64,000 nt of DNA from Euglena gracilis. Its lineage: Eukaryota. Position numbers and translations under genes: made by a program. The stretch spans positions 7,389,425-7,453,424 of the forward strand of contig CP154954.1 of assembly GCA_039621445.1 (NCBI GenBank), written 5' to 3'. A model generated the notes under the pieces. The model saw nothing but the letters and a program-made list of their open reading frames with translations. It was not told where the DNA came from and did not search any database. Of this stretch, positions 3,321 through 58,422 are shown piece after piece. Positions within the stretch are counted from its first letter, which is position 1; each line of letters starts with the position of its first letter.

Positions 3321-6300
3321 TTAAATGAGCTCCAAACTAGAGAACTGCCCACCGACCCCACGGTGCCCCAAACAGGAATTATTTGTTGGGGACGTTTGTA
3401 CAAACCCTGAAAGTTCAGCAACTGGTCTGGGTGAGGATACCGTCGAGACCCCGTAATGGGAAACGTTGGTACCCGAAAAGTCCAAAATTCTTACTGCAGA
3501 AAACAATCCCTGTTGTTGATGGGACTGGGCAGGGTTGGCATACAAGCCTGGCGAGTGGCTTGCGGAGTCTGCGAATAAGCCAAAGGAGGCACGGCGGGCC
3601 TCGCTCACTGCAGTCAGACAGGGCAGCAGTGGGTGGGTCGGTGGGGGGTGGGGGGTCCTGCGGCGGACGAGGTGCCGAGGCGGGATCTGCGCAAGGCGCA
3701 AGCCCCTCTGCCTGACCTCCTCGTCCCTGGGGCCGCGGACATGCACAAAGGTAGAGGCGGGGGGCGGGCGAGGGGGAGGGGAAGGCGAATACACAGGGCA
3801 CGCTGCAGGGCACGCATGACACAACGGCCTCAGGGCTCCCCCTCCGGCAAGCCGTCCTCAAAGCCTGCTTGGGGGAAGGTGAGTGGTCAGGGGCTTGTGG
3901 AGCGACGGCGCGCCTTCCATTCTCCGGAGCACAGGGGCAGGCCTTTCTGCCAAAAAAAAATGCAGAGAATCAGCCCCCCCCCCCCCGCTGTGTGGCCAGG
4001 AAACTCGACACGCACCGCCAGGCGAGGACCGGCCTGCGGCACGGTGGTGGTCAGGCAGAACTCGGTGTCCCGCGTCACGGCGGCGTCCGACTGGCTGAAC
4101 GGCGTGGCGTACGCCTTCCGCAGCTGCGGCCAGGCCCGTGAGTTTGCCCGGAACCGAGGGCCGCGGGGCTGTTCAACGTGGGCGTCCGTTGAGGAATCTC
4201 AACGTCGAAACCAAATTCCAAAAAAGGTTGTCCCCTTCGCAAGGCTGCTGCTTCCCAATCCCGGCCTGGGTGCTGCATCTCGTCCACGGTGTGCTCTGCT
4301 TCATACGCTGCCGATGGCAGAGGCGGGTCTGGCGCGATTGGGAGTCCCCTTCGGGACATGGAGGTGATGTTGAATATTGGGGGACTTGCACATACTGTAT
4401 GATGCCACGCCACTTACCACAGTTCCCCACTCATAAGATGAAACACCACAACAATGTAGCCACCCTGGCATTCCCAACTCCGAGAGCACACATAAATCAA
4501 CACAGATCAACACTGCTGCCCCAGTGTTGTAAGCCCCAGACCGAACCCTGAACATGAGGTTGGCCCGCTCCAGGTACCAGCGCTTCTCTGCCTGCTCCTG
4601 CACTGCGGAATAAGTGTTGCCCATCATGGCGATGAGCAGGTTGAGCAACAGGATGACTACCAATATGATGTACGGCGGCAGGGTGCTGACGGTGTTGGTA
4701 CGGTAGATAAACCAGCCAAAAAAAAAACTCAAATTTGGTGCCCTGCACCATTTGCTTTCATAACACTGATGGCCATTGCAGTACACACATCATTCCTTTC
4801 TTGGCTGCCCTCAACTCTTGGCAGCCCACTAGTTTTTGAAATATGCAGTGGGCAGTCGTGCTTGCGGGAGGGAAATTCCTTGGTGCTTGAAATTAAGTCT
4901 GGAATAATTTAATGAGAGATTAAGAGTACTTGGGACGAAGAAAAGATGCTTGGATGGTGCGCTCATACAAAGAGAAAAAAATAAAAAACTGGCGATTTGC
5001 GCAGAATGATACAATTTCACTTCATGTGGGAGGTCCACAATTAAATCGAAGGAATAGAGAAAGAGAGGAATAGAGATGCAAATAACAGCAACATCTTGCT
5101 TCTTCAAACTCAAAAATATGATATTTCTCTTTTAGAAATGGCAGCCTCAACTTGCCCCGGGGGGGGGGGGCGAGTAGAAGCTCCAGGGGGGGGGGGGTTG
5201 TGTGGCGGCCCCTAGGTCACACAATTGGGGATGCTGCTCGGGATAGGGCATACATTACACCCAGATTGATGTCTTTTTTTTGCAAGAAGTGTGGTACTGT
5301 TGTGTGTATTCATGTTGGTGAGTATACTTAAATGTGCAAAATGCAGCGATGCCTTCCTGGCAGCTGGTGGCCTGCTATTATAAGCATCAGTTCTGGGAGA
5401 TGCCTGTCTTCCAGGCACCACAATTTATAACAATGAACATTCTACTGCTTATCAATAACAGATGTCTGAAAAATGTTCCAGCAAATATCTCGTGGTTATG
5501 GGTCTATTCAAATTCGGAATGGGTTGGGGTTAGGATTGGGCGCACCAAAATTGGGCACCAGAGTTAAGCGGAAATTAGGCCCCCGATTGGAGAAGATTGA
5601 GCCGTGTTTGGGCAAATTGCGGGCATTCTTGCAAATTGCAGGCATTCTTCCTGAATTCCTAAAAGTTGGGTTTTCCGTCAATGTGTCCCCCCTTGCCCAG
5701 TCACCAATCTTGCCTCAGCAGCACCCCCTGGATCTCACGCAACTTTTCACTGGTCATCTTCCTGGCAGTAACCTTCCACGTGGCCCCCTTGGGGGTGGGG
5801 GCAAATAGAAACCCAGTCTGACCGTCCATGGTCCCGTGCGTCCCGGAAATCCCAAGGGATCCGGGGCAACCGTCGTCCTATTCAGAGGGGGGGGGGTGTG
5901 CTGGACGGCCCTCGGAAAAAATGCGCAAAAATGCGCAAAAAACCGCACAAAAAATGAGCTGAGTTTGTGACATTCCCAAGGGAAAAAGTATTTGGAAAAA
6001 AATTTAACAATAAGCCCAAAATTAAACCAAAATCACCAAAAACAGCTGAAATGAAGGCATTTTGGCCAAAAAAAAAATGCACGAGCACGGCGTCACTCTC
6101 TGTTCACCATAACCAACAATGTCAGCCATGGTGCCCCTTATTTGCGACCAGGGGAGTGGGATTCGATGTGGGGTCTCTGAAAACCCGAGTGTCCTCATCA
6201 TCATTGGATGAGTACCCACACCTCATCAAGGTTTCTTTCTTGAGTGTCCCTTGGGTGAAAAAAAAGTGCGTAAATGGGTTCGTTATTTATAGAAATGGGT

Positions 6301-9300
6301 TAGTTGGACGTGGGCAAAATTCGGTGAGCATGTGGTTTGATTGATGTTGAAGAACGGTGTTGAAGAACACCAATGTCAAGTTTGTTTTGACATGTGGACA
6401 ATGTGGACAACATGGACAATACGGACAAAATGCCTCCAAAAAAGTGTAAAAAAAAAGTGGGAAAATGGAAAAAATGTGCAAAAAATGCGCAAAAATGCGC
6501 ATTTTGAAAAAATTGACGAAAATGCGCAAAAAATGTGCAAAAATGCGCAAAAATTTTCAGTGCATTCCCCCCCCCTCTGTCCTATTTGGGGAGGATTTGC
6601 GCTTATTGTTCTGGGGTGCAAAAGTGTTTCCTGTATGGGCTGGAGGTGCATACTTAATGGTTGGGCGTATACAAAAAATGGTTGTTTTTGGGGAAAAAAA
6701 CCAGCAGCGGACACCTGCTCGAGATGACGAGCAGGTTGATGAGGAGCATGCGGCCCCCGCTGAACCGCTCGCTGTAGGTCTCGAAGGGGAAATCGCCCAC
6801 CAGCCCCAACAGCACAAACTGCCATTGGCAAGGGTGGGGCAGAGGGAGTGGGATTGGCAAGGGTGTGGGAGGCAAAACGATCTGCCCTTCTTTGCGTTGC
6901 CGAAAACGCGGACTTAGTTCTGCAGCTGGCATGCTGGCTCAAAGGTTTGCCCCGGCAAGAGATGGTGACTTCATTCCAGGCAGTCCCTTTTCTGAGAACT
7001 TCTTTTGACCTCTATTGAAAAAATATCACCATTGCACCAGGTATACGAGTCTCCTTAATAAACACATGGGCAAAAAGATGAGTTCCCCCAAAAAAGGGTG
7101 ATAGCTACAAATCAACTTCAAACTAAGTCCCCAACAATAGCTAAACCATGTCAAACCATGCAGAAATCTCCGAGAAGGGGGGTGGGGTCGTTGGACATTG
7201 GGACATTGGGAGGCCCACCGCTGGGCAGAGGTGTTCCACGAAAGAATCCACGCCGCAGTGCTCTGTGTCGGCCGTCAGCATGTAGAGAGACATCGTGAAG
7301 CCGAGCAGCACCGTGAGGTTGACGCAGAGGAACACCTTCACGTCGCCGCCTGGCCCGGGGGGGGGGGGGGCGTCCGCCGCCGGGAATGCAACCACCGGGG
7401 TCAACCCCTGCCCGGAGGCAGTGGTGGCGGTGAGCAGGCAGCACGAGGCGGGTCACCACTCAAACGTGCAATTAGAATGGTCACCCCTGCCAGTTGATGG
7501 AATGAGAAGAAACCTTGTGTGAATTTTGCGGGGAAATATCCCGAAATATGGTCCCTACGTGGCCGCAAAGCGTTGGGAACTAAAAACAACCTTTGGCAGA
7601 CGTTTTAGGGCAATCTGAATAATTTCTGCACCACCTCGAGAAATGGGTGGGCAGCTGCCACCACACAACTTCCTGGCGCCGTGAACTCGAGCACAAAGGG
7701 GTGCCCGGGTGGGCAGGCACCGAGCAGGATAAAAGAAAAACTGTCCAGGGTTGCTTCTGTTCTCCGAACCTGTGCTAAGTTTACAGGAAACCGTGAACGT
7801 TCATTTCATCAAGTCGCAACGTGGGGTCGACCCACCACCCACCGACCCACCCACCCACCCAAAACACACCCAAAATGGACCAAAAAAAAACATTTCAGAA
7901 ACTCAGCCCCCCCCCCCCCCTCTTGGGAGAGTCCTGCCAGTATTTGGTGAATATATCGTTTCAACATCTCCCTGGTCATTGGCCTGGGATGTGTTGGCCC
8001 TACCAGGCCAGGGGCAAACTTTGTTGGGGGGGATTGACTCCTTCTGGAAACTGGAAAGCGAGGGGAAAGGCAATGAGCCGAGGGGCACTTGCACTGGCGC
8101 ACTGAACAGAAACAACCACTGCTCGGCCAATTGTCTCTGCCATTGATACAATGCTGTCCCTATTTCCGTGCAAACAGAGCATAGACCTTCAAATGGTTCT
8201 TTTCCCGTTTCCTTGACATAAATATACCGGATGAAGCAGATGAACTTCCTCGGTATACGATCACAGTCATGAATCAAATCGATTGCATCTGCAGTGGCTC
8301 CCCAAATGCCGTTCGCCCCCCCCCCCCTTATGTCCAACCACCAGTGATCTCTGTCCTCCGACCGAGGGGGGGGGGTGGTCGTTGTACATAGGGTTCTGAC
8401 CAAAACGGTGTCCTCCGACTGGGTCGTTAGACACAGAGGGTGGTTGGACACAGAAGGGGGTGTGGAAAACAACACCTGAAAACCCCCAAGGACATCCAGG
8501 CCAGCCCGTACTGCAGCATCTCCTTGATCATGATGACAAAGGGCCCCGTGGACCGAAAGCCAAGCAATGACAGACCTGTCTCAAGCACTTGTTTTGCTGG
8601 AATATGATGCTGGGTATGGATGTGCATCCTAGAGGTAAAAATGCTTCTGTTTCGAACTTGATTTAGGAGAAAAATATTCACGAAATTGAGCGACCATTGC
8701 TTTCCGCAATACAAAATATCAGAGCAATGAGAGCAACAAGGACAAAAAAAGGTCAATGCAAGCAACAAAAATCGACCAACTGATATGATTTTTTTTCAGG
8801 CATATATTTCTCATTTGGCAGAAGACAAAATGCTGAGTCCACTTGACTGCATGCACTTGTGTGCAATTTCAGAAAGAGGAAACCAGCCCTGTGCAGGAAG
8901 AAGAACACATGCAGCCAACCTGTGAGGGCGGCGAAGGAGGCCGCCACGTCCACTAGCACAGGCAGATCTGCGAGTCGAGCACAGAGGGCCGACGGCAGTA
9001 GAGTCTATTTTGTGTGGAAGCAGCGTAGAAGCCATTTTGGCCAAAAAAATAATGACATTTGCCTGGGGACACACACACACACACACACACACACAGAGAG
9101 AGAGAGTGAGAGAGAGAGAGAGAGACATGCACACGTGCGCGCGCACACACACACACACACATGCACACGTGCACAAGCACCCACACACACATAGGTGGAT
9201 CAATAACTTGTGCAGGCGGCATGGGGCCTTGGTTGGGCATCGCTCATTTCCCCAACCTCCTTGTCTCTCTAAGCCCCCCCGTATTTTACCAATCTTTTCA

Positions 9301-12300
9301 AAGGTCATCTTCCCGGGAAGCACTTCAGGTGAATTGTCATGCCAGGAAACAAAAGGTACAATAAAAATTGGCGGTATTTGAAATGCTAAATTAGATGTTC
9401 AGTATACATGAATGTCGTATTTGTAGCAATGGAAACAATAACATGGAACCCTGCCAACAATAAAAAACATGGAACCCTGCCCCACACACACTCACTCACC
9501 ATCCATTTCATTGCGAGGTTCACAACAATGCAGCGCCTCTGACCGGAGGGCCACGGAGGACAGGAACAAGAAAAACAAAACACATTGCCCAGCGTCGCCT
9601 CGACGGCCGCCGCCCCATGCGCCTCATAGACTGGGAGGGGTGCGCATGGGGAGGGGGCAAGGACAACCAAGAGTGCCAAACAGAAAAATATATGATAGCG
9701 TAAGTATAAATGATGACAAAACCACAAGAGGAGCACAGACGGACATGGCAGTGACACACACCATTTCCCCTATGTACAGTAGGGAAACGAAATTGTGGGA
9801 CAGCTGAGAATTTTGTGGGTCATACCCAACCCCCAGCTCCAAAACCTCTGCCAGCCCATGGGATGTGGTGATGGTGTGTGCACACTGGCATGGCCCTGCC
9901 CCACGCAGCAGTGCCCCAGCCAGCTCTGCTGCAGCACGCTGTGCAAAAGTCAGGCCAACCCTATGCGAGCAGGTCGTTTCCATTTTCTGACCCCTTTTGG
10001 ACTGCGAAGCAAACCCAGCCTCGGGAAAGGGGACGAGGCGGCTCACACTGCAGTGAGTGGCATTGGCCCCTAACTTTGAATAATGCAAGTTAGCAACCCC
10101 TGGCCTCGACATGCCGACTAGTTTGGGCTAAAAAATTGGGGTCAGAAAATAGAAAATACCTGCTAACATAGGGTTGGCCTGAATTTTGCACAGCGTGATG
10201 CAGCAGAGCTGGCTGGGGCACTGCTGCGTGGGGCAGGGCCATGCCAGTGTGCACACACCATCACCACATCCCATGGGCTGGCAGAGGCTTTGGAGCTGGG
10301 GTTGGTTATGACCCACAAAATTCTCAGGTGTCCCACTATTTAGTTTCCCTACTGTAGAATGAAGAAATAATTTCCAGTTTATTTCCGAAAAAACAATGTG
10401 CATGCCTGCGAATGCTTACACACATACAAATAAATTGCCTGCCAGCCTGCCAGCATTCAGAGCAGCACACGCATAAAAAATGTGAAAGATACATACACTT
10501 TGGAAAAATTGGATAATAACCACCATTTTCCCACATGAATCAGGAAAAACCACAGGAAAAAAAATACTTTAACTGTTAGTCCGTCAGTCAATTCATTTAG
10601 GCTCTGCTCTATGAAATCTTTCAAAAAAAATGAGTATGGGCCGGAGGAACACATCTGCAGCGCAGCCCTGAACCGCATACCTCACAGATTGATGCTCAAA
10701 TGGGAGGGTAAGCACCAATTGCGAACCACCCACACCAGGCTCCTTCCCTGGGGGGCGGAGGGCTGGACTCAACACACCCAAAAAAAGGTCATTTGCAATT
10801 ATCATACAATGTCGAAATATTGAACAATCAACTGTGCCTTCGCCAAATGGTCAAAGATGATGCTGCTTTATCAGCTTTTCTTGCGTTGCACAAATTCGAT
10901 CACCATCGACACCGTGAAAAACATTGTCAAAAAAGGTGTGTCCATCAAATGCAGAGAACGAGCGTGGGTCACACATCCAGAGAACGAGCACTCAATTCAC
11001 TGAGCAAAATCTCCGTACCCACACAAGAAACTTAAGTTGGATTGGGGCTGGCTGGCTGGGCTTGTAGCACCCCCCTCCCGGTGGGTGCTACTGGAGCACG
11101 ACTGGGTGGAACTTTGGCATGGCGGCAGCAGCCCCCATCCTGCGGGGTGTCTGCAAGCCTCACATATACCAACCACGCATTTTCATGGAAAGGTGGAAGC
11201 CTGATCCACACAGCCCTCCACCCCACTGACAGGAGAACCAACAGCTCCAGTGCCTGCACTGCGAGGGCGACCGGGTGGCCCTGCACCACGCCAGAAGCAC
11301 TGCAGCGGTGGTTGTTGGAGCACAGCAGGCAGCCAGTGTTGTCATACCCACCACGTTTTTGCATTCTTAGGTTTCCAAGACAGGTGTACACATCCAGCTG
11401 CATGGATACGTAATACCATCCAATTCCAACTCCATGGCAAATTTCCCTCAGTGCACCTCCCATTTTCCCCCAACATGAGCAAATTTAGCCCAAAATGGAT
11501 CATTTCTCGAAGAAAAAAATGTAATATACTCCAAATTTTTCTGATAGTGAGGGGGTTTACAGGTGGGCGGTGAAATGAAACCCCCTGGGGGGCTTGCATT
11601 TGTGGTTTGTGGATCATTTGTTTATCTAAACACGTAATACGGTCAAAGAGAACCCAATTGGATGAAAATTATGAATTGAATTGAATGCAGAAGCCATTGT
11701 AAATAATCTGCTATTCTCGAGGAACCTTAGAAGACCAAGAAAGCTTTGGTTTACTTCCGGAAGATGTCAGGGTCGCAATGAAAAAGAGAAGAGCCACAAA
11801 GCAAAAAGAAAAGGGGGCCTTTGAACCCGACGCCCTTTGGCCCATCCCAGGCTTTTAATTGTGGACCTGCCCCCCAGGAAGTTATCGCCCAAAGCAAGCA
11901 CACAAACCTCAGTGATAAATACCCGTATGGACTTGGGATGATTTTCCAAAATGGAAAATCATGTGATGGGCTCAAAAAATGACAACTTCAGCAGGGTAAA
12001 TGACAATTTGAGGCGGGGGGCAACTTCCCCGGGGGGTCAAATTGGAGGAGGGGGGGGGGCTGAGTTGTAGGGCAGCCCCTGGGTGGGCAGGATGCTGGCG
12101 GCGGTCCAGGCCAGCACAGTGCCGAGGGCCACCGCCAGCTTCCGGTAGAACATCCGCTGCCCGAACGCGTCCCACTTCTTGTCCAGCACCTGCCGCACCT
12201 CCGCGCTGACCACGAGGTCCAGCCGTGGCGCGTGGTGCCCAAGGGCGGCGCCATTCTGCACAGGCCCATCAACGCACTCCCACCAGGCACACAACGCCCA

Positions 12301-15300
12301 GGCACACATGGATAAGGCTAAAAGAATATGCACAATACCCGACACAGAAATATATTCCACATAAAAATTGTCTGGGAGGATATCTCCCCAAAATGAGAAA
12401 TCACATGCGTGGTTTATCAGCTAGCATCTTTAGTTGGCAAATATGACAACCATTTGGTTTCCAACTTTCAAGATGGAAAACAGAACAAAAAGTACTTCCA
12501 ATTTTTTTTTCGATCTTAAGTTGAAAACTCAAGTTGAGTTCAATGTGCAACAGAAATTGGCATGTAAAATATCTATCAACTGCGTCATTCATATCCAGTA
12601 AAAAATGTGGGATCCTTCCAACCTGACCTCAGAAAATAAATTGGACATAATATCCTGGGGACGTACTCGCCAGCACTGCAACTGTGACCGTTTTTGGCAT
12701 AATTTCCACTTTTTCCCTCAAAAAAGGAGATAATGAACACCTCTCCTTTTCCCTCAGAAAAGGAGAGGTGCAATTGTTCATATAAATACATATGAACAAT
12801 TACACCGAGCTGTGGCAGGAAATAACGAAAGCGATCTCTGGGTTGAAACTCTCAGTGCCATTTTGAAAAACAGAAAAAATAGAAAAACTAATTCAATGTG
12901 GGTAAACCCTCCCCCCAAAATATAACCCCCCAAAAACAACCCCCCCAAAATATTCCGACATCAGGATCGGAGTTACAACCCCCCAAAACAACACAAAAGG
13001 AGGGGTTTTTGGACTTGTTGCGACCTACACAGACAAGATTTTTGGTTTCGCAGAGACTGGAACGAAATTTTTTTCACGAGGAAAAAAACATGCTGAATAA
13101 TATGCTTAAAACTAAAGGAAAATGGCATTTATTCACTCCCCAGGGCACAGGGCTGGAAGAGAACTTTTTACTGCATCCCAAAAAAAGTCGCAATAATATT
13201 TCTGTGCTATACCTCCCATCCCTGGACTTCGAGCAGAAAAATAATGCCCTAGGGGTGATTTGGGGGTGGGGGCTTATCCCCTGCCTATATCCAACAACCA
13301 GTTTTAACAACATCTGTACGCCAACAGGGGGAGGTCGCTGTCCTCCGACTGGGGGTCTGTCGTCACAGAGGTTTTTTTTTTGGTACAAAGAAACACTCCT
13401 GCGGACTTTCCAAAATGCCGAATAATCCTTCGACCTGGGGGCGGGATATTCGTTGGACATAGGGGGAAAACTCCAGAGGAAAATTCGTTTTGAGACCTCT
13501 TGAAACCATGCAACGATCAAAAAACTCATCAGGATCCAACAGCAAAGGAAAGACAAAGGCCCCCTGGGGGACCACGGCACCTGCTCCACTTCTCGAGGTA
13601 CTCGGTTGTCCACCAGTTTCAGGCAATTTGTGACAAAGCAGGCCAGCCTGAGATGGACCGCCGAACACCATGGGACTTCCAAAGTTCTTCCAAAGTTCAG
13701 AAGTTTTGTACGATTCTCAAGGGTTAAAAGATAACAAAAAGTGTGAACAATTGGGCCCCTCATGGGGGCCAGGTAGCTTTCCCGTGGGAGGGGGGGGTCG
13801 ACTTTCCCAGATGCACTGCACTCTGGGTATCGGATTATTTTTCGTTTTGTTTGGCACTTTACGGCTGCCACACAGAATACATACATATTTGGTACAGTCG
13901 TGCAATGCCCCCCCAGTCCAAGTGTGCATTTTACATCATCAATTTTGAGGTATGGGCTCAGGCTCAGGCAGTCAGGAACAGACGGAGAGCCGGATGGCTT
14001 TGCAGGCCTGGGCAGGGATCCGAGCCCCGGCGCACATACAATCGATGGCAGTTTTGACGGCCTCTCCAGAGTTGGGGTCGATGGATGGCTGCTCAAGGCC
14101 GCACAGGGGGAACAGCTTGCACGTGATGGGAGCAGGCGTGGGGGCCAACGTTCTACAGGAGCTTGCTTCTTCGACTTGAAAGACCATCCCAAAAATGGAT
14201 TTCGATTTTTTTTAAAAGACAAACAACGAAAGGGGATAGACAGAACATGAAAAAAATCCGATAAGTGGTGCAGAAATCTGGTTCTACATTTTTTTTCTCG
14301 ACAACGTAGGTTTTAGTGTCCGCCTTTCGATTAATATTTATAACGTGTTTTCACGGCTTTACGCATTACCTGCTTCAAAGGGGGTGGGTCGGAGGTTCAG
14401 GGGAGGCGAACCCTGTAGAAATGTCCTGAAAAAAACCCTGTAGCTAACCCATTGAGTAATGCCATACAAACCAGCTAGATCTTGTAGAACAAAGTTACGC
14501 ATTGCAAAAACGCAATACATTAGTAATGCGCCAAAATATGGGTTAAAAGAATGTATTCTTTCAAATTCAAATTGCATCACAATTAGGGGTGTAAACTGCC
14601 TGAGTGGGGCCATAATCCCAGGCGATCACCGAGTACTTCGCCAGGATGTGTTGTGAAGCAGCCAACACGAAATACCCCAGCAATCAGCCGAAGGCGTAAA
14701 ATCTTGACTCTTCCATGCACAGTGAAGCGTTGGAGGAAAAAATGCTCAATTTGCAGGGAAAAAGGCGGTGTGGATGGCTAGGGACTTTGAAGCAGTTGCT
14801 ATAAATGAACAGAATCCAAAACTGCACCTTTAAATTGGAGGGGGTGCTATCGTTAGCAATCACTGGCAAACAAATCCTTTAGCTCCCCCCCCCTTGTCTA
14901 AGAACCAGAAAAGATAGATAAGAACCAGGGGGGGTGGCTTAATTTGCCAAAATATGGGTAAGATCCGGGTGGTGGCATGAAACAAGGAGGAAAACTATGA
15001 CTGCAAAGAATCCGGTGCCTCATGCTGAAAAGGAAAAAAAAACATTCTTGGTTTGGAGGTCCACTGTTGAACATACAGGTATTTGGATGCAAAAACCAAT
15101 AATATTTCACCAAATCAGGCTGCAGAAATCGCGAAATTATCGAGGCATTTGTCTTGAAAGTGCACACAAAATAAGCTTCCCTAATAAGATGACCTTTAAA
15201 AAAGTGGTTAAGAACCGGAGGGGGGGGGTGCTTCCCCAGGTGAAAGGGGTACGATCTGGGGACTGGGGGAGCATGCGGATATTCCAACCAAAACAGCGAA

Positions 15301-18300
15301 ATGGGTTGGTTGTGGCTGCAGCCTGCCGCGGCCAACCAAACCAAGTCTAAACTCCCATGCCACACCCTCTGATTTGCTGGAGAAGTTGTCACCCAGGCTT
15401 CAAGAGGGAGGGGAACATTACCCCCCCCCCCCGCCTGTCCAAGCTCCACCCTTGTCAGGAATCATCATTTGGGTGTGCACCTGCTGATTTGTCAGATGGT
15501 GTCCTCTTTAACGGAGACAGCTGCCCCCCGGCAGCTGCCACCTTCACTTCTGCAGCTTCCAACGTCCTGCTCTGTTGTCGACGCATGACACATCGTCCCA
15601 GTGTGTTTCTGTGGGGCTTTCACCCTGTGGATGACAGCGTCCATTTAATAAACAACCGTAAATAGATAAGAATCATCTCTTTGTACAATACGGACACGTA
15701 AATGTAGAATATGGCTGAACGTCGTGCTCCTGAGTGACGTGCCGAAGCGAGCGTCAGCCCACGAGTATTCAACCCAGCTGGGCAGCCCTTCGGGTTGGCG
15801 AGTTGCCTGCAGGGGCCACCCCACAACCGGTGCTTTGGTGCAGGCCGGGCGGAACATGCGCTCCTGGCCCAGGGCGGCGGCGAGGGCCAGCGGGGTGAGC
15901 CGCTCCGCGTTGAGCCAGTGGCGCACGTCGCTGTCCTCCAGCCCCTCCCGCCGCATCTCCTCCACGACGTGGTCGCCCGCAACCCTTCCCCACCGCCGCC
16001 CGGCTCCCGCCTGCCCCGGAACAGCCGGGGCGTTAGGGCTCGTGTTGTTTGGCACGCGAAAAGGCTGCTGGGAGGTGTTGAGTGTTGAATTAATTCGTTT
16101 TTAGGCTTATCGTTCGTCGAACCTGGATCCAGCTGGCTCGGGCTCCTCTTCCATTCATACAATGCCTTGAACACCCCACCCCTTCCTGGCAAACAGCTCA
16201 ATGTGTATTTGGCGTGCATCAGCTCGCCATTATGCTCCAAACACAAAACACATTGACAGCGGATAAATTCTGCATCAATCGCATGCCTACGTGTTCTGTT
16301 TCTCAGGACACAAGAGTTGTGTTTCCACATCGGAAAAGTGCGTGTCTCTTTTACTTCTCCCACATGGTGTCTAATTACTTAATAGAAGAAAACACACCCT
16401 GGCATCACAAATTACGCTTGTAGACACGTCCAACTGATTTCCATACAAAGGGTTATTCATATGCGTTCAGACATTGCTCCGACGAAATTCATAACATGTC
16501 TGCCTCTCTTTGAAAAAAAGTTCAGAGCACGCCAGGACGGGATATGAGGGGATGGTTGGCCGTACATTTCGGGCAAATCAAACCCAGGGCTAAACCGGCA
16601 TGTCATCATCAACCACACTCAAGATGAGCATCCATTGGCAGAGAAGAGAATGAGAAATTAATTCGCTGGATTGTGAAAGCAAAAAAAAAAAAACAAGGAG
16701 CGAAACCTCGTAAGCCATCCATGTTCACAGTGCACTCCAATGTGACATTGTAGGAGGAGCCCTGTGCGTGGATTACTGCCATATGAAGGGCAGAGTTGCC
16801 AAAACAATCCGTGGTGGTGATTAGGTGCAGAGGAACGCAAAGAGCAGTTGAGGCGGCATGGCAAGACCAGAGAATAATGCTCCGGTGGGCAGATGCCAAT
16901 TTATTTGTGATTTGATTGTGGGAATTCACAGAAAAGCTTTAATGAGTAGGGGACAGCACAAAAATGGGAAATTCAAAAAAAAGTGTGTTTTGTGCCGCTT
17001 CCAGATATATCTCCACAACCAGCGCATTTCCTTTCATCCTCGCAGGGGCTGGAGAAGTTGCTCATCGTTTTTCTTTCCAACGCTTCATAAATGGCAGATT
17101 CCTGTGCCCGTGGGTGTGCGTCGCCCTGCGCCGATTCTTCAGGAGGCGGCGCAGCCAGCAGCGGTCGGCACTCCGGGTGGCGGTGATGCACTGCAGGAGG
17201 TCCAGCTGGTTGCTGGACACTGCGAAGAGCAGCGGGCACCGGTTGCAGGGACCGCTGGGCCGGGATGCCTCCCGCCCCCAGGGAGGTGGGGGTTCGACCC
17301 CCTCCCACACCCACCACAACAACAGCCCTGTGGGGGAGGGGGGTTTCAGGAATTCCCATACAGCCGGGTGCTTCTTGGTCCTTTCCCAGAGGTTTTTTTA
17401 GGGCCTGAGGGGAGGGGGGGTGGCGGACCCACCAACCCACCCACCCCTTGGGGGGCCTGCTGGGGGGGGGGGGGGCTTGAGGGGGACTTACTTTGAGGGG
17501 TCAACTTTGGTCCAATTTTTTTTCGGACCAAAAATAGAAGAAAACCCAGCCTCCGGCGGGGTGTCCACCCGGCCCGCCGCCCCCCCCCCCCTGGGGGGCT
17601 CGGCCTTGACGCACCACGCCCCCCCCCCCCGGGTTACTAAACCTGCGTAAGAGCCTGACCGTTTTTGGGGTGGGGAAAGTGGAACTGTGCCACCAGTGTG
17701 GGGTGTAAGAATGCAAGCAGGTCCCTGGCCCCCCAAAGTAGGCCTCTCCCCCGGGGGAGAAGAATGAACCAGTGGCAGGGGTGAGGTGGCGCGGGTGAAT
17801 CAAGGAGCGTTGGGAGGTGTGAGATAAATGCGGCAAAACAATATGATCGGATAGATCAGATAGATGCAACACTCTGGACTGGCCACCGTCATTCCCATGT
17901 CTTGTTTCAATAAACAAATTGGAAATTTTTTGAACACGTCAATGATGAAAACTTTGGAACAACAGACTGACAGAATGTCACGTAGTTGTCATTCACGCAG
18001 TTGTCACATCGCCTCGAAAAAGGATTTGGAACCCAAAGGTCCTAAGGGATTTGCACCCCCCCAAAATGACGTGAAAACATCAGGGATTGGTTTTCAACGC
18101 TCCTGCGCCCACCTTCCTGAGTTAATAGCTTATTCCTCGTCTGTTGTGATCGGTCATCATCCCAACGCACATTAGCATAGCAACCCTGTTCATAATCAGT
18201 GACTTTACAGCACACGTTTGGAGCCCAGTCTTTTGAAAGGAATAACACCCTCAGCCATATTGCCCCCCCCCAGGGGGATGAGGTGAGGTTCTGTTTCCAA

Positions 18301-21300
18301 GGCCCAACCACAACCCTTCAACCCCAGGGTCGAATCTCAGCTAAAGGTCGCTGAGAACATTTTGTCAGGCATTTGTCGTGGTGAAGTAAGCACTTCCCAT
18401 CGGAGAGGGCGGGGATAACCCATTGGGGACCTTTGAAATGGAGGGCTTTGGCCTCACAACTGGCATGTTGTCTCCGCGTTGAGCAGCTCCGGGTGACGGT
18501 CCAGCAGCCATCGCACCAGCTCTACGTCCTGGTCAGGGCTTTGCTGCATGAGTTGAAGAGGGGTTTGTTCAATCCTCAGTTGGAGGGGGGGATATTGTGG
18601 CCCATGCGGGGGCCAACCCCCACCTGCGGTGCAATCAGGAATTTTCTTGAGGACCCTTGGGGGGTCCACCCCGTGGGCCGGCTGGAAAAAGGTGCTGGCT
18701 GGACCCCCCCCCCAAAGAGTGCGGGGGGTCCAGCTGGCTGGGAACAACAGCTGGACCCGGCGGGTACACCCCCCCCAAAAATGCCAAAAAAGCCCAAACC
18801 CAGCCAGCTGTGTTGGCATTTCTCAGCCAAAATCTTGAGATGAAAACCCCCCCAAAAAACCACCCCAAAAAGTCAGTTTTAGCCATTTTTGACCCCTTTT
18901 CAAAATTTTATGGTCCATGGCTTCGCCAGGTTGGCCCGAACTTTATTTCAGTGGACCCCCCTCGGGGGGGGGGGTCCGATTCCCCCCAGGGAGGTGCTGG
19001 CTGGTAAAAAGGTGCTGGCTGGACCCCCCCCTCCGGAGGTCTGGGTCCCCTCCGGCTTAAGAGAACCCCTGGGCGCAATACCCTTGATATCCAGCAATTC
19101 TGCAGCCACCAGCTGAACCACCTGATAACTCCCAACAGGCGGCTCGGGGGGGGGGGTCAACTGGTTTTTGGCTGACCGCCAGGGAGGGGGGGGGTTGCCC
19201 AAAATTGACCAAAATGCGGGTTTAAGCACCTTTTGAGCAAGAAAAACCCCAAAATCAAAAATTTTATCTGGACTCCTTTGGAAGGTGGGGGAGGGTCCAG
19301 CATCCCTGGTCTGAGGTGCGCCCCAAACCCCGAGTCACCCTCCTTGAATGGAACACTGCTCCCCCTTCTCCGGGAAAGGCCTGATTCTGGTGGATGATGG
19401 CGATGTGCAAGATGTTCTCCCCCGTGTATTCCCCTTCTCCATACACAGATGTCTGGGGCAGAATGATTTGGTGTGACAAAACGCTGCTTCCGTTCTCATC
19501 AATCTTCCAAGGGCCTACACAAAACAAAAACAGACCCCACCACACAACAAACATGCACATGGTTCGACCAATGCCCATAAACACGCCCACAGCAGCCCAC
19601 CCCCAACCCGTCCGCCCACAGCCACATCCGGGGAACATATTTCTCTCGGCATTGGCGCTCAGTGGGTACCCGGCGCTCAGTTATATGTCATAATTTTCCA
19701 TACCATCCTGATTGCCAGCTTAGGGTAGCACTCCACAAGCATCTTGCCGATGTCAGTCTGCCGGTACAAAAAAGCGATGTGGATTGGATTGGCTCCGACC
19801 GCATCAGACAGCAGGGGTCCATCGTTTTTATCCAAACAGACCCAAAACCCAACTGTGAGAGACTTCGGAATAAAAAAAAACCATTTCCGATGCACAAATA
19901 CCCCAGCACGACTTGACTTCCAGCGTTCCAGCGTTCTGGGACAGGAAACCGGTTGAAAGACGAAGAATCAATCAAGGGCCAAAGTGGTCAGAGTGGGGGA
20001 GGGAAGAAGACTCGAACAAACTTTCCTGGATTTGAAAACTATGGGTTTCGGGTCTTAGGAAATGCCCACTTTATAACAAGGAAGGTTGGATCAGGTGGCG
20101 GTCCATTTTGAGTCCATTTTGGGCCTGGAGGGCCTGGACCGCCCCATCCCCGCCGTCCCCTTCTCCGGTGCTGGGCCCCTGGGCGGTGTGGCGCAGGACG
20201 GAGGGGTCCTGGGCCGCCAGCTGCCGCACCGCCTCCTGCCGGCCCTCCTTGATAGCCCGGAAGATCCCCGCGCCGGCAGGCTGGGGGGGGGGGCATCCAG
20301 TGGGTTATTGGGGGGTATGAATGGGAACAATTCCAATCCAAATCAGCCAGCACACCGTGAGCACAGGTTCCATTTTTATGACATTTTTATTCCCTTCTCC
20401 TATTCCGGCATATTGTCGTGTGAGGAGTTTATTTGGGTCCCTAGTACCTAGTACCGACTTAATTGTCACGTGATGGTTTCCTGGTGGGGTGGAAAAACAA
20501 TCCAAACGTCAAGGGTGGCACAGGCACAGTGGCGAGTGGCACAGGCACCTCCGCGCCACTCGCCTCCGGGAGGCCACAGGCGTCGGATTGCCCAGCAAAG
20601 TGCCCCCCAGCTGAGTTGCAGCAACGTTGGGCTGCCAAACCACCTTTGCCAACTTAGGGGTGGGTAATTTTCAATTGTCGGATGAACAGGACCATTAAGT
20701 TAGGTCAGAATTATTTATAAAAACTCCATTTAACAACTTGCTTTTTGGAAAAATGATCAATGGGTCCATCAATGATTTTGGGTACACCCAAATAATTTTG
20801 CAGGCAATAGGGCCAAAAGATCGGTCTTCTAACTTTGCAGACATTTTGGATGGATTTTTGTGCTCACCACCTCCTGAGTTTCCAAAAAAAGATGCATCAT
20901 TCCACATGCTTCTCCTTCTGTCTGAAGGGGGGGGATTATTATTATTATGGGGCCTTTCTTTTGAGCCGCAATATTTTTCAGCCTTCCCCCCGGCATGTTA
21001 TTCGGGCACACAAAGTTTGAGGGTATTGCAAAATTGGGAGGCAGGGTTTACAGAACGGTAGACAACAGGCGTGGCACTTTGAATCCAAGTGATGAAGGCC
21101 TTGCTATTTGCAAGGAGGCGGAAGCAAACATCCCCCAATCCACAGGCACGTAATAATTCATTTGAACTTGGTTTCTGGTCTCTGGTAGAAAACTTCTTGG
21201 ATCTGGTATTTCTGGTGATAAAAATTGATGCCTGGAAAAAACGTCCCTGGCCCCCATCCAGCCTGGGCCTTGTGCATCCGCTGCTGGTCGCTGCGAGAGC

Positions 21301-21602
21301 GGCTGTCGTTGTGCGGCTGGGACTGCCGGCGGAGGGTGCGCGGCCGCGGGTGGGGCCCGCGGAGGTGAGGGCAGCGGTGCGCCGAGGTGGGGTCGTTTCA
21401 GCCGTGCAAAGGTGGACAACAATTACCAACAAAATTTTGATAAAACACCCGAGGCGGGCCTCCACCCAATCCCAAACCCCGAATCTTGATGGGGTGGGTG
21501 GGTGGGTCCAGGGCAGACCCCCCCCCTAGTTGGACTAAGGCTTCTTGTATGTTTATGGCCGGCGCTAACTACCGCTGGATCCCAGTGGATGAGGTGTTCC
21601 AT
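3321..21602 (-). CDS. Ankyrin-repeat TRPV-like cation channel, copy 1 (about 27 exons, roughly 780 aa; +2 frameshift in exon 18 as assembled)
   Basis: Hand-spliced exons, in transcript order: 21581-21602, 21269-21393, 20185-20271, 19714-19805, 19387-19453, 18466-18528, 17731-17770, 17132-17240, 16768-16822, 16562-16579, 15851-15974, 14606-14652, 14014-14127, 13581-13634, 12085-~12231, ~11206-11315, ~10623-10658, 9545-~9624, 8895-8976, 8508-8565, 7227-7344, 6721-6823, 4554-4673, 4272-4312, ~4040-4125, ~3665-3734, ~3321-3608. The translation shows ankyrin repeats (DAVGANPIHIA, EYTGENILHIAI, GSFFSPGGEAYFGGCPLLFA, DCFGNSALHMAV, LNAERLTPLALAA), WDYGPITCKLFPL, pre-S1 VLDKKWDAFG, the S4-S5 linker GFRSTGPFVIMIKEML, pore LGLVGDF, S6 LLLNLLIAMMGNTY and a TRP-box-like WYLERA. 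The 3' end and a few junctions are uncertain. Confidence 0.9.
5883..6579. mobile_element. hAT-like MITE (also at 31383-32052)
   Basis: Ends CAGAGGGGGG/CCCCCCTCTG, flanked by a (G)TCCTATT direct repeat; subterminal AAAATGCGCA arrays at both ends. Confidence 0.75.
9069..9190. repeat. Compound (CA)n(GA)n microsatellite (also at ~34578-34700)
   Basis: Directly visible. Confidence 0.95.
9777..10354. mobile_element. Tc1/mariner-like foldback MITE (also at 35248-35825)
   Basis: Inverted arms of about 220 bp starting CAGTAGGGAAAC, flanked by TA on both sides. Confidence 0.85.
18650..19310. repeat. Dispersed repeat with an AAAAAGGTGCTGGCTGGACCCCCC motif
   Basis: The motif occurs at ~18686 and ~19006, in the duplicate region, and in related form at ~52570 and ~61300; ends not defined. 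Confidence 0.5.
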
Positions 21603-21958
21603 TGGTCAGTCAGTTCAAATAAAGTTTTGTGTTCATTCAAAATGAAGGAACACAGTGGAACAGGGCAAACACCTTGTGCTGTGGGACAGCCTCCCACAGC
21701 AGGCACCCTCCCAGGGGGCCCAGTGATCATTCCCTTGACCATTCCCTTGTGAATGCCCGTTTTGGGCCCCAAGCTCCGTCGGCGGTGGGGGGGGGGGGTG
21801 GCACTGGGTGCGCTGGGGTGTGCTTTGGCACTGTCCAGCCAAACCCCGCCCGCCCAGGGTGGGGGGGTCGAAAATGCCCAACCACCTGCCTGCCCACAGC
21901 ACCAACCGCTCGGAGGGCGAACCTCCTTAAAAAAAAAAAGAAGCCGACCCAACCACCC

Positions 21959-21971
21959 NNNNNNNNNNNNN
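21959..21971. other. Assembly gap (13 N)
   Basis: Run of n characters. Confidence 1.
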
Positions 21972-28765: not shown

Positions 28766-31700
28766 TTAATTAAATGAGCTCCAAACTAGAGAACTTCTAG
28801 AGGGCGTTTGGTGTCGCTTCAGCTGCCCACCGACCCCACGGTGCCCCAAACAGGAATTATATGTTGGGGACGTTTGTACAAGCCCTGAAAGTTCAGCAAC
28901 TGGTCTGGGTGAGGATACCATCGAGACCCCGTAATGGGAAACGTTGGTACCCGAAAAGTCCAAAAATTTTACTGCAGAAAACAATCCCTGTTGTTGATGG
29001 GACTGGACAGGGTTGGCATACAAGCCTGGCGAGTGGCTTGCGGAGTTTGCGAATAAGCCAAAGGAGGCACGGCAGGCCTCGCTCACTGCAGTCAGACAGG
29101 GCAGCAGTGGGTGGGTCGGTGGGGGGTGGGGGGTCCTGCGGCGGACGAGGTGTCGAGGCGGGATCTGCGCAAGGCGCAGGCCCCTCTGCCTGACCTCCTC
29201 GGCCCCGGGGCCGCGGACAGGCACAAAGGTACAGGCGGGGGGCGGGCGGGCGGGAGGGGAATGCGAATACACAGGGCACGCTGCAGGGCACGCATGACAC
29301 AACGGCCTCAGGGTTTCCCCTCCGGCAAGCCGTCCTCAAAGCCTGCTCGGGTTTGGGGGAAGGTGAGTGGTCAGGGGCTTGTGGAGCGACGGCGCGCCTT
29401 CCATTCTCCGGAGCACAGGGGCAGGCCTTTCCATGCCAAAAAAATGCAGAGAATCAGCCCCCCCCCCTCCCCGCTGTGTGGCCAGGAAACTCGACACGCA
29501 CCGCCAGGCGAGGACCGGCCTGCGGCAGGGTCGTGGTCAGGCAGAACTCGGTGTCCCGCGTCACGGCGGCGTCCGACTGGCTGAACGGCGTGGCGTACGC
29601 CTTCCGCAGCTGCGGCCAGGCCCGTGAGTTTGCCCGGAACCGAGGGCCGCGGGGCTGTTCAACGTGGGCGTCCGTTGAGGAATCTCAACGTCGAAAACAA
29701 ATTCCAAAAAAGGTTGTCCCCTTCGCAAGGCTGCTGCTTCCCAAATCCCGGCCTGGGTGCTGCATCTCGTCCACGGTGTGCTCTGCTTCATATGCTGCCG
29801 ATGGCAGAGGCGGGTCTGGCGCGATTGGGAGTCCCCTTCGGGACGTGGCACTATGGAGGTGATGTTGAATATTGGGGGACTTGCACATATGATGCCACGC
29901 CACTTACCACATTTCCCCACTCATAAGATGAAACACCACACACAATGTGGCCATCCTGGCATTCCCAACTCCGAGAGCACACATAAATCAACACAGATCA
30001 ACACTGCTGCCCCAGTGTTGTAAGCCCCAGACAGAAACCCTGAACATGAGGTTGGCCCGCTCGAGGTACCAGCGCTTCTCTGCCTGCTCCTGCACTGCAG
30101 AATAAGTGTTGCCCATCATGGCGATGAGCAGGTTGAGCAACAGGATGACTACCAAAATGATGTACGGCGGCAGGGTGCTGACGGTGTTGGTACGGTGGAT
30201 AAACCAGCCAAAAAAAAATCAAATTTGGAGCTCTGCACCATTTGTTTCCATAACACTGACGGCCATTGCAGTACACACATCATTCCTTTCGTGGCTGCCC
30301 TCAACTCTTGGCAGCCCACTTGTTTTTGGAATATGCAGTGGGCAGACGTGCTTGCGGGAGGGAAATTCCTTGGTGCTTAAAATTAAGTCTGGAATAATTT
30401 AAGAGTACTTAGGTTAAGAGTACTTGGGACGAAGAAAAGATGCTTGGATGATGCGCTTATACAAAGAGAAAAAAAAACAAAAAAATTGGCGATTCGCGCA
30501 GAATGACACAATTTCACTTCATGTGGGAGGTCCACAATTAAATTGAAGGAATAGAGAAAGAGAGGAATAGAGATACAAATAACAGCAATATCTTGCTTCT
30601 GCAATCGTAAAAATATGAGATTTTCTCTTTTAGAAATGGCAGCCTCAACTTGCCCCGGGGGGGGAGGGCGAGTAGAAGCTCCAGGGGGGGGGGGGTTGTG
30701 TGGCGGCCCCTAGGTCACACAATTGGGGATGCTGTTCGGGATAGGGCATACATTACACCCAGATTGATGCCTTTTTTTGCAAGAAGTGTGGCACTGTTGT
30801 GTGTATTCATGTTGGTGAGTATACTTAAATGTGCAAAATGCAGCGATGCCTTCCTGGCAGCTGGTGGCCTGCTATTATAGGCATCAGTTCTGGGAGATGC
30901 CTGTCTTCCAGGCACCACAATTTATAACAATGAACATTCTACTGCTTGTCAATAACAGATGTCTGAAAAATGTTCCAGCAAATATCTCGTGGTTATGGGG
31001 TCTATTCAAATTTGGAATTGGGTTGGGGTTAGGATCGGCACACCCAAAATTGGGGACCAGAGTTAGGTGGACATTAGGCCCCCGATTGGAGAAGATTGGG
31101 CCGTGTTTGGGCAAATTGCGGGCATTCTTGCAAATTGCAGGCATTCTTCCTGAATTCCTAAAAGTTGGATTTTCCGTCAATGTGTCCCCCCCCTTGCCCA
31201 GTCACCAGTCTTGCCTCAGCAACACCCCCTGGACCTCACACAACTTTTCACTGGTCATCTTCCTGGCAATAACCTTCTACTTGGCCCCCTTGGGGGTGGG
31301 GGCAAATAGAAACCCGGTCTGACCGTCCACGGTCCCGTGCGTCCCGGAAATCCAAGGGATCTGGGGCAACCGTCGTCCTATTCAGAGGGGGGGGGGGTGC
31401 GCTGGACGGCCCTCGGAAAAAATGCGCAAAAATGCGCAAAAAAAACGCGCAAAAAATGAGCAGAGTTTGTGACATTCCTAAGAGAAAAAATACTTGGAAA
31501 AAAATTAACAATAAGCCCAAAATTAAACCAAAATCACCAAAAACAGCTGAAATGAAGGCATTTGGCCAAAAAAAAATGCACAAGCACGGCGTCACTCTCT
31601 GTTCACCATAATCAACAATGTCAGCCATGGTGCCCCTTACTTGTGACCAGGGGAGATGTGGGGTCTCTGAAAACCCTAGCGTCCTCATCATCATTGGATG

Positions 31701-34574: not shown

Positions 34575-34637
<63 letters not shown>

Positions 34638-46600: not shown

Positions 46601-47070
46601 CCCCAATCCACAGGCATGCAATAATTCATTTGAATTTGGTTTCTGGTCTCTGGTAGCAAACTTCTTGGATCTGGTATTTCTGGTGATAAAAATTGATGCC
46701 TGGAAAAAACGTCCCTGGCCCCCATCCAGCCTGGGCCTTGTGCATCCGCTGCTGGTCGCTGCGAGAGCGGCTGTCATTGTGGGGCTGGGACTGCCGGCGG
46801 AGGGTGCGTGGCCGCGGGTGGGGCCCGCGGAGGTGAGGACAGCGGTGCGCCGAGGTAGGGTCGTTTCAGCCGTGCAAATGTGGACAACAATTACCAACAA
46901 AATTTTGATAAAACTCCCGTGGCGGGCCGCCACCCAATCCCAAACCCCGAATTTTGGTGGGGTGGGTGGGTGGGTCCAGGGCAGACCCCCCCCCTAGTTG
47001 GACTAAGGCTTCTTGTATGTTTATGGCCGGCGCTAACTACCGCTGGATCCCAGTGGATGAGGTGTTCCAT
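28766..47070 (-). CDS. Ankyrin-repeat TRPV-like cation channel, copy 2 (+1 frameshift in exon 5 as assembled; possible pseudogene or alternate haplotype)
   Basis: Same exon series as copy 1, shifted by about 25.4-25.6 kb, with the ATG at 47070. Exon 5 reads TAT GTA AGA AGG instead of TAT GGA GAA GGG (44933-44936). Exon 18 is in frame here (NVFCFLFLSSVALR). Confidence 0.85.
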
Positions 47071-47617
47071 TGGTCAGTCAGTTCAAATAAAGTTTTGTGT
47101 TCATTCAAAATGAAGGAACACAGTGGAACAGGGCAAACACCTTGTGCTGTGGGACAGCCTCCCACAGCAGGCACCCTCCCAGGGGGCCCAGTGATCATTC
47201 CCTTGACCATTCCCATTCCCATTCCCTTCGGTCCCAAGCTCCTTCGGCGGTGGGGGGGGTGACACTGGTTGCGCTGGGGTGTCCTTTGGCACTGCCCAGC
47301 CAAACCCCGCCCGCCAGGGGGGGTCGAAAATGCCCAACCACCTGCCTGCCCACAGCACCAACCCCTCAGAGAGCGAACCTCCTTAAAAATAAAGAAGAAG
47401 CCGACCCAACCACCCCCAACCCACCCACCCACACTCAAATACCCACGCACCGGGGAGGTCACGCGGTGTTAAATGCATCCGTGGTCAAAATGCTTCTGCC
47501 TTTCCCCCTTCTGGGCCTTGCTGCCCAAGGCCCCCACCCAGGCATCCATCTTGGGCAGAGCAGGTCTGCCAGGGTTGCGGGGCCCTCCGATTGGGCAGAA
47601 GGGCAGTTGCAAGGCTC

Positions 47618-47621
<4 letters not shown>

Positions 47622-47670
<49 letters not shown>

Positions 47671-47690
47671 GCGCATGCACATGCACACAC
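47622..47690. repeat. (CA)n microsatellite
   Basis: Directly visible; another lies at ~58395-58470. Confidence 0.95.
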
Positions 47691-54279: not shown

Positions 54280-54530
54280 CCCCGGGGGGGGGGGTCACTT
54301 TCCACTCTGAAAAAAACCAGTCAGTCACTTTTTCCGAAAAACCAGTCAGTCACTTTACCCCCCCGGGGGGGGATCGGCCTCTCCTCAGGAGGCAATGAAA
54401 ATTTGCCAAAAAGTCTCAAAAAATCCAAAAAAATTCCGGCGCCTTCGGCACCAGGCCAGTCACTTTTTCATTTTCGGGCCTAAAAACCAGTCAGTCACTC
54501 TGAAAAAACCAGTCAGTCACCCCCCTGGGG
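54280..54530. repeat. Element with repeated AAAAACCAGTCAGTCAC units
   Basis: Four near-perfect copies plus one variant, bounded by CCCC/GGGG runs; resembles subterminal transposase-binding repeats. Confidence 0.55.

Positions 54531-58388: not shown

Positions 58389-58422
<34 letters not shown>

Follow-up and report, generated by a model that had tools for sequence, protein, structure and literature searches.

The stretch of DNA analysed here (the window) comprises 64,000 nucleotides (nt) of the Euglena gracilis contig CP154954.1 (positions 7,389,425 to 7,453,424 of the forward strand, assembly GCA_039621445.1), and carries two tandem units, each longer than 22 kilobases (kb; about 25.5 kb) and each with a channel gene. 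The region 3321-21602, which lies in the first of them (unit A), can be read with high confidence as the 3' two-thirds of an E. gracilis TRPV-like channel gene on the minus strand, interrupted by 24 nonconventional introns and by no conventional one. The locus is laid out as follows (position 1 being the first letter of the window).

3515..3886, minus strand: 3' untranslated region of the last exon of copy A, some 370 nt or more; RNA contigs are continuous from 3934 to 3515-3518
3887..21341, minus strand: copy A of the channel gene, 25 exon blocks, residues 498-1152 of the transcript product; stop codon at 3889..3887, first coding exon at 21341..21269
9570..9575, minus strand: 2-nt TT insertion in a run of T within the exon of residues 910-936, absent from copy B and from the transcript
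21959..21971, no strand: run of 13 N, an assembly gap, at which the similarity between the two units ends exactly
29371..46809, minus strand: channel part of copy B, with the same 24 intron positions and free of the TT frameshift
47546..58288, minus strand: 19 upstream exon blocks, residues 1-496, found only beside copy B, with 18 mapped introns

A protein search made with an exon-bearing frame (window 4553-4789, minus strand) retrieved P0001, the 1152-residue product of EG_transcript_820 in the eukprot set. By exact peptide mapping, its residues 498-1152 correspond to the 25 exon blocks of copy A (21341..3887, minus strand) and map a second time in the window, to copy B (46809..29371), whereas residues 1-496 map once, to 19 exon blocks upstream of copy B (58288..47546). 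The naming scheme 'EG_transcript_N' is that of the E. gracilis Z1 transcriptome (PMC6366073). P0001 being a public transcript product that is matched residue for residue, the mapping provides transcript-level evidence for the exon junctions and marks the window as nuclear DNA of E. gracilis.

The TRPV motifs reported by the original prediction, an annotation made from the sequence alone, are real. Among all PDB chains searched with P0001 (phmmer), the best 60 matches listed are all chains of the TRPV family, with Inactive at the top (1.7e-39, residues 553-1127 of P0001), followed by TRPV6 (about 3e-38), Nanchung (about 5e-34), TRPV5 (about 1e-32) and by TRPV1, TRPV3 and TRPV4 (about 1e-24 to 1e-21); removal of the 24 introns restores one open frame. 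P0001 also matches Ank_2 in Pfam (E = 9.2e-16, residues 525-615), together with further ankyrin-repeat models, and, weakly, Ion_trans (E = 2.5e-4, residues 925-1084). When ten single exon-bearing frames were searched one by one, Pfam returned almost no matches, because the exons are too short. These similarities point to a TRPV-like cation channel with ankyrin repeats and a six-transmembrane part, which may not belong to the TRPV subfamily in the strict sense.

The rules against which the introns of copy A can be read are already in print. Nomura et al. 2025 (PMC12501133) defined by knock-in genetics a code, 5'-N3CDG-/-CH'GN5-6·R(exon)-3' (here and below the dot stands for the 3' junction), and found that the CAG/CTG motif, the spacers of 3 nt and 5-6 nt, the purine and inner pairing are all needed for splicing. 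In E. agilis, 71.8% of 649,158 introns are nonconventional and 84.4% are slidable; the proportion in an improved E. gracilis gene set is stated to be comparable (PMC12501133). A survey of E. gracilis counted 16,151 nonconventional introns among 28,337 (57%), with terminal pairing, while 35% of GT-AG introns are without any terminal pairing (Gao et al. 2024, PMC11170887). The introns described here are further members of this class: the class itself, its consensus and its abundance have been published, and the transcript is public.

For each intron, all donor/acceptor pairs that reproduce the transcript protein were enumerated between the neighbouring exon blocks. The labels run from A1 to A25 and skip A17, the TT break, which leaves 24 introns for copy A, with lengths of 108-2047 nt. 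They are given below in the order of transcription, with the 5' spacer and motif, the 3' motif and spacer, and the first exon letter after the dot; stems are given in base pairs (bp), and 'both' is the count reported with an RNA joint, both = 0 meaning not slidable.

20272..21268, minus: A1, 997 nt, GCC CAG GCTGG...CCAGC CTG CCGGC·G; 8-bp stem; fits the strict code; protein-level support
19806..20184, minus: A2, 379 nt, GCC CAG...CTG CTGTCT·G; 3' spacer of 6; 6-bp stem; fits the code
19454..19713, minus: A3, 260 nt, AAT CAG GATGGT...ATCATT CTG CCCCA·G; 9-bp stem including G-U pairs; not slidable; fits the code
18529..19386, minus: A4, 858 nt, AAT CAG...CTG ACCAG·G; six slide positions; fits the code; RNA joint 18528->19387 in X5, X6 and X20, not in X15
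17771..18465, minus: A5, 695 nt, TGC CAG...CTG CCACT·G; outer stem of 3 bp; fits the code; RNA joint 17770->18466, both = 0
17241..17730, minus: A6, 490 nt, GGC CAG GGACC...GGTCC CTG CAACC·G; 8-bp stem; RNA joint 17238->17729, both = 2
16823..17131, minus: A7, 309 nt, GCG CAG...CTG CACCT·A; not slidable; fits the code
16580..16767, minus: A8, 188 nt, GCA CAG...CTG GGTTT·G; 7-bp stem; fits the code
16562..16579, minus: 18-nt micro-exon DLPEMY, residues 693-698 by peptide mapping, with a nonconventional intron on either side
15975..16561, minus: A9, 587 nt, GGC CAA CC...GG TTG CGGGC·G; spacers of 3 and 5; purine exon start; CAA/TTG is outside the published CDG/CH'G code
14653..15850, minus: A10, 1198 nt, GCC CGG...CTG CTTCAC·A; 3' spacer of 6; CGG/CTG is a published derivative; RNA joint 14652->15851
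14128..14605, minus: A11, 478 nt, ACT CAG...CTG CTCCC·A; fits the code; RNA joint 14126->14605, both = 4
13635..14013, minus: A12, 379 nt, GCC CAG GCC...GGC CTG CTTT·G; spacing variant, spacers summing to 7 (3+4 or 2+5) as against 8-9; RNA joint 13633->14013, both = 2
12227..13578, minus: A13, 1352 nt, GCC GTG GT...AC CAC GCGCC·A; motif GTG/CAC in the register 3 and 5; next exon begins with a purine; the long helix, bulged and of 16 pairs, reaches the first base of the intron; not slidable; RNA joint 12226->13579, both = 0, in X5, X6 and X20
11317..12084, minus: A14, 768 nt, ACC CAG...CTG TGCTCC·A; 3' spacer of 6; fits the code; RNA joint 11315->12084 in X5 and X20
10731..11206, minus: A15, 476 nt, GAT CAG GCTTCC...GGAGC CTG GTGTG·G; 8-bp stem; seven slide positions; fits the code; RNA joint 10729->11206, both = 6
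9626..10690, minus: A16, 1065 nt, AAT CTG...CAG TCTAT·G; CTG/CAG is the published reversed configuration; RNA joint 9625->10691, both = 0
8977..9544, minus: A18, 568 nt, GGT CAG AGG...CCT CTG TGCTC·G; fits the code
8566..8894, minus: A19, 329 nt, GCA CAG...CTG TCATT·G; fits the code
7345..8507, minus: A20, 1163 nt, GGG CTG GCCTGG...CCGGGC CAG GCGGC·G; 9-bp stem; reversed CTG/CAG
6824..7226, minus: A21, 403 nt, GCC CAG CGGTGG...CCACCC TTG CCAAT·G; register, read by eye, canonical; 3' motif TTG makes the third pair G-U, outside the strict code; RNA joint 6822->7226, both = 2
4674..6720, minus: A22, 2047 nt, GAG CAG...CTG CCGCC·G; fits the code; RNA joint 4672->6721 in X5, with one letter between the sides
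4313..4553, minus: A23, 241 nt, GTT CAG...CTG CCATC·G; fits the nonconventional code; RNA joint 4311->4553
4126..4271, minus: A24, 146 nt, ACC CAG GCC...GGC CTG GCCGC·A; fits the code; RNA joint 4124->4271, both = 3
3932..4044 (span), minus: A25, 108 nt; two candidate registers, with coordinates worked out by eye

The strict code, N3-CDG...CH'G-N5-6 followed by a purine, is fitted by 19 of these 24 introns, and all 19 have a purine exon start; their contiguous stems, counted from position +4, are 3-9 bp long. In 22 of the 24, 3 nt separate the 5' junction from the start of the helix and 5-6 nt separate its end from the 3' junction, which is the cut register that had been proposed from the sequence. 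The register is kept (3 and 5) with other pairs by A9 (CAA/TTG), A13 (GTG/CAC) and A21 (CAG/TTG), whose exons start with A or G. As to A25, the register that keeps Leu1138 of the transcript (4044..3937 to 4042..3935) has odd spacers, whereas the register of the copy B type (4039..3932, CCG CAG...CTG CCCCTG·T) puts Val in place of Leu1138.

The four examples on which the original prediction had been built turn out to be exact to the letter (21268..20272, A1; 17730..17241, A6; 9544..8977, A18; 19713..19454, A3). Its count of about 26 introns comes down to 24, one of the apparent breaks (9570-9575) being the 2-nt TT insertion, and its 'almost all' non-GT-AG was too cautious, for it holds in 24 of 24. 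Its assignment to the euglenid nonconventional consensus is borne out by the fit to the code (19/24), by the lack of GT/GC-AG borders (0/24), by the purine exon starts (19/19) and by pairing that extends past the motif.

It could be objected that these are ordinary spliceosomal introns, of the U2 type (GT/GC-AG) or of the U12 type (AT-AC), whose borders have merely been misplaced. The junctions of 19 of the 24 introns of copy A lie in short direct repeats and can slide by 1-6 nt, so the borders are ambiguous in principle; moreover, A23 opens with GT, and A5 has an AT-AC option at the protein level. Yet among all protein-keeping junctions a GT-AG or GC-AG option exists in none of the 24 introns of copy A, none of the 24 of copy B and none of the 18 upstream introns. 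A23 closes with TC, not AG. A5 is the only intron with an AT-AC option, and its RNA joint, which is not slidable and lies one base off in the CAG/CTG register, rules that option out. An ordinary spliceosomal origin of these borders is thus hardly credible.

Controls bear on how far the fit exceeds chance. When both junctions were moved by 15-100 nt, with equal slide options (1000 trials), a mean of 0.16 of 24 introns fitted the code, with a maximum of 2, and borders compatible with GT/GC-AG were available in 0.57 of 24 on average. When the true donors were combined with the acceptors of other introns, the bare motif was still fitted in 12.8 of 24, because CAG and CTG are common to many introns; what distinguishes the individual intron is thus the extended pairing. 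Intron-end pairing, the check by folding that had been proposed, was assessed by duplex energy. In copy A, cognate ends average -18.1 kcal/mol and non-cognate ends -13.6 kcal/mol; the figures are -18.3 and -13.8 kcal/mol in copy B and -20.8 and -14.8 kcal/mol in the 18 upstream introns. In each of the three sets none of 2000 permutations reaches the observed mean, that is, cognate ends beat non-cognate ends in 2000 of 2000. The summed spacer of the best helix, a quantity that sliding leaves unaffected, is most commonly 8 nt (14 of 42 introns, compared with 7% in controls). Several introns with a value of 6 or 2 have the same CAG/CTG register, to which outer pairs are added. Rfam returned no match at gathering threshold in the whole window.

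RNA and DNA sets were compared with positions 3321-21602 of the window. X5 and X6 are contig sets from two different studies, guessed to be RNA; X20 is a raw RNA-seq run chosen by its species label, of which about 5% was read; X15 is a DNA-like contig set. X5 and X6 have about zero depth in the unique intron bins 12471-13080 and 16131-16740, hence they behave as RNA. The joints considered are the 15 listed out of 133. Fourteen are single joints, namely those of A4, A5, A6, A10-A16, A21, A23 and A24, and an unrelated joint in a repeat (6228->6418). The introns covered by listed joints amount to 16 of 24 in the contigs of X5/X6 and to 15 of 24 in the raw reads of X20, and all the listed intron joints match the protein-level mapping, slide-position counts included. 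Transcripts with GT-AG junctions or with other exon boundaries would have spoken against the proposed gene structure; the RNA joints sit at the predicted junctions.

A case in point concerns the micro-exon. A contig joint, 15975->16767, skips A8 and A9, and the letters of the micro-exon stand between its two sides; in X5 there are 16 intervening letters, whose reverse complement lies within the micro-exon when compared by eye. No raw read in X20 has this joint. The 18-nt micro-exon (16562-16579) is retained in RNA contigs from two studies. Record 19 of X6 has 259 nt between exons 20 and 15, which by my arithmetic equals 58+82+79+40; the sum supports A16 and A18-A20, and it fits the form of the 79-nt exon that is without TT.

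A second objection is that the apparent introns are artefacts, be it of template switching by reverse transcriptase, of transcript assembly or of a processed genomic copy. Template switching does, indeed, classically leave non-canonical 'introns' with direct repeats and stems at their borders, and the RNA evidence consists mostly of assembled contigs. Several observations weigh more heavily. Without all 24 removals there is no single open frame, and the frame that they restore aligns to TRPV channels over residues 553-1127. Identical joints recur in the contigs of two studies and in the raw reads of a third, and in unique intron bins the depth of the unspliced form is about zero. None of the listed joints is present in its joined form in the DNA-like X15, which excludes a retrocopy in that DNA. 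Finally, genome editing has proven the code to which motif and spacing conform. Taken together, these points leave an artefact with a negligible probability.

Some observations nevertheless tell against the reading of the region as a TRPV-like channel gene with 24 nonconventional introns. Five of the 24 (A9, A12, A13, A21 and A25) are outside the strict published code. The introns A1, A2, A3, A7, A18-A20 and A25 have no joint of their own among those listed and rest on the match to the transcript protein. At the sites where the copies differ, the RNA contigs are mosaics of copy-A letters, copy-B letters and letters of neither, so that the RNA joints may come from either copy. The intron ends are nearly identical in the two copies, which differ too little there to yield compensatory changes; only one-sided changes are seen, a U-A pair turned into U-G (A3/B22) and an A-U pair turned into an A-C mismatch (A6/B25). 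Lastly, the Ion_trans match, at 20.8 bits, lies under the Pfam gathering cut-off of 25 bits.

The two units are near-identical. In a self-BLAST, unit A (1-21958, cut by the start of the window) and 25393-47415 share 94.3-98.9% identity. Exon identity is 98.7% (over 1969 nt of the 25 exons, three exons of unequal length being unscored), compared with about 94.5% overall, and 26 positions differ over 22 of the 25 exons. Among the introns of copy B, 20 of 24 fit N3-CDG/CH'G-N5-6, 19 of these with a purine exon start. The N gap is 617 nt upstream of the first coding exon of copy A, and the exons upstream of it are missing beside copy A in this assembly. These features suggest that unit A is either a truncated duplicate, that is, a real partial duplication, or a second, diverged allele scaffolded in tandem. 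The TT insertion, which is not an intron, shifts the reading frame of copy A; it may be a homopolymer assembly error or a disabling mutation. What is new at this locus is the near-identical two-unit arrangement, the N gap at which the similarity ends and the 19 upstream exons seen only beside copy B.

The original prediction had placed the 5' limit of the gene near 21602, which would make copy A a complete and separately expressed gene. Homologues from other organisms (P0003, P0004 and P0005) are without the 497-residue N-terminal extension of P0001, there is an ATG at about 21602 within the open frame 21423..21605, and the higher identity of the exons fits continued constraint or recent origin. 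Against this, no residue of the transcript product comes from 21342-21602, a segment that is not a first exon but is homologous to the 3' part of the copy B intron B19 (47543..46810), so a gene start at 21602 is not supported. Between the acceptor and residue 519 there is no Met; the TT frameshift is in copy A and not in an RNA contig; and the end of the A/B similarity at the assembly gap suggests a truncated duplicate or alleles scaffolded in tandem. A self-contained copy A is therefore improbable, and the region is better regarded as the 3' part of a longer gene. Eighteen raw RNA-seq reads diverge at 21570, within a high-copy stretch, and are probably transcripts of repeats rather than of the channel gene.

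The upstream exons encode a low-complexity N-terminal extension of 497 residues, which homologues from other organisms do not have: in P0003, P0004 and P0005 only about 25-35 residues precede the first ankyrin repeat. The extension may be genuine, may represent a translated 5' leader or may result from a read-through of two genes. The 18 upstream introns depart more from the code, 6 of them fitting N3-CDG/CH'G-N5-6 (4 of the 6 with a purine exon start), and all their ends pair strongly; some of the remainder keep the 3/5 register with TGG/CCA, CAT/ATG, CAA/TTG or TGG/CCG. The long open frames in 21972-29370 and 58300-64000 look like low-complexity or repeat sequence.

Other observations concern the interior of the introns and their relatives. 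Very high-copy repeats lie inside introns and upstream of copy A (5761-6980, 9421-10640, 18571-19180 and 21011-21602), with a word depth in the DNA-like run of 16,000-135,000, compared with about 35-60 in unique parts; in the interior of A22, the depth in X15 reaches 134,600 (bin 5761-6370). The interior of A16 (9775-10356) holds a 220-nt inverted repeat pair of 94% identity, and the upstream intron B15 a 275-nt palindromic match (about 49088-49356). A burst of one mobile element, whether of an introner or of a transposon family, is not supported, the introns having no mutual similarity beyond microsatellites and the two internal inverted repeats. Many raw RNA-seq reads leave exons 22 and 14 at their exact borders (loose ends at 4553, 4645, 12080 and 12225-12226); the reverse complement of one loose end spells, by hand translation, AAYESEHSMD of the paralogue P0002 (EG_transcript_25325). 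Paralogous channel genes thus seem to share these intron positions. A search for related genomic loci in metagenome contigs gave 41 pattern matches, none of them confirmed.

As regards mechanism, the work of Nomura et al. 2025 and earlier studies would have the terminal helix bring both junctions together; the machinery would then cut in a ruler-like fashion, 3 nt outside the 5' strand of the helix and 5-6 nt outside its 3' strand, and GT/AG would not be read. Nonconventional introns are reported to be removed after conventional ones (Guminska et al. 2018, PMC6221363). With each intron defined at its two ends, keeping an 18-nt micro-exon flanked by a pair of them would raise no problem of exon definition.

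A bolder, and rather doubtful, proposal is that intron class is segregated by gene and that the machinery reads the geometry of the helix and not the letters CAG/CTG. In the transcript of 44 exon blocks (58288..29371), none of the 42 mapped introns is conventional; by my arithmetic, the chance of 42 of 42 being nonconventional, if each were independent at a share of 72%, is about 1e-6. RNA-verified introns, moreover, keep the 3/5 register with pairs that the code excludes (GTG/CAC or CAA/TTG). If true, gene-level segregation would point to a locus-wide gain of such introns or to a commitment of whole genes to one pathway.

For the splicing machinery as such, the locus adds little, being no more testable than thousands of other loci; it carries little weight for the field because the class is the majority in Euglena and the code has already been defined by genome editing. 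It does bring together in a single gene 42 nonconventional introns with transcript support, which form a compact natural panel, and the exceptions to the code (GTG/CAC, CAA/TTG, CAG/TTG and the summed spacer of 7) suit the published knock-in assay. It also provides a gene model for a Euglena TRPV-like channel, a family of interest because a TRP-like channel is implicated in Euglena gravitaxis; there, a TRP-like fragment was implicated by RNA interference (reviewed in PMC9605500). A literature search for 'EG_transcript_820' found no paper naming the transcript; its gene model may already sit in the supplementary E. gracilis gene sets of Nomura et al. 2025. The case further indicates that a reading made from sequence alone can correctly recover such genes.

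It remains to set the locus beside known systems. With the animal TRPV channels (TRPV5/6, TRPV1-4, insect Inactive and Nanchung), the predicted protein shares N-terminal ankyrin repeats and, probably, the six-transmembrane pore domain that comes after them; it differs from them in being euglenozoan and in the 497-residue low-complexity N-terminal extension that the public transcript adds.

Conventional Euglena introns (GT/GC-AG, with a GTGTG 5' consensus and a C-rich polypyrimidine tract; PMC11170887) resemble these introns in being removed in cis from nuclear pre-mRNA of the same kind, and also in length, with published means of about 510-540 nt as against 108-2047 nt here. The borders set the two apart: conventional ones occur in 0 of 24 introns here and in 0 of 42 when the upstream introns are included, and the ends of these introns pair.

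The euglenid nonconventional introns are the closest match by far. Milanowski et al. reportedly dealt with them as well, in 2014 and 2016. The features in common are the lack of GT-AG, a CAG-type triplet at +4 to +6 paired with a CTG-type triplet 5-6 nt before the 3' junction, a purine at the exon start, extra inner pairing and slidability through direct repeats. CGG/CTG (A10) and the reversed CTG/CAG (A16 and A20) are likewise spliceable in Nomura et al. 2025. The points of difference are the motifs of A9 (CAA/TTG), of A13 (GTG/CAC, RNA-verified and not slidable) and of A21 (CAG/TTG), and the summed spacer of 7 in A12. Along the same lines, 12 of the 18 upstream introns are outside the code, a larger share than that reported for the genome of E. 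agilis, in which the code covers 61.2% of the nonconventional introns and 38.8% are outside it (PMC12501133). And whereas many genes are reported there to mix conventional and nonconventional introns (PMC12501133), the whole transcript of this channel gene is without a single conventional one.

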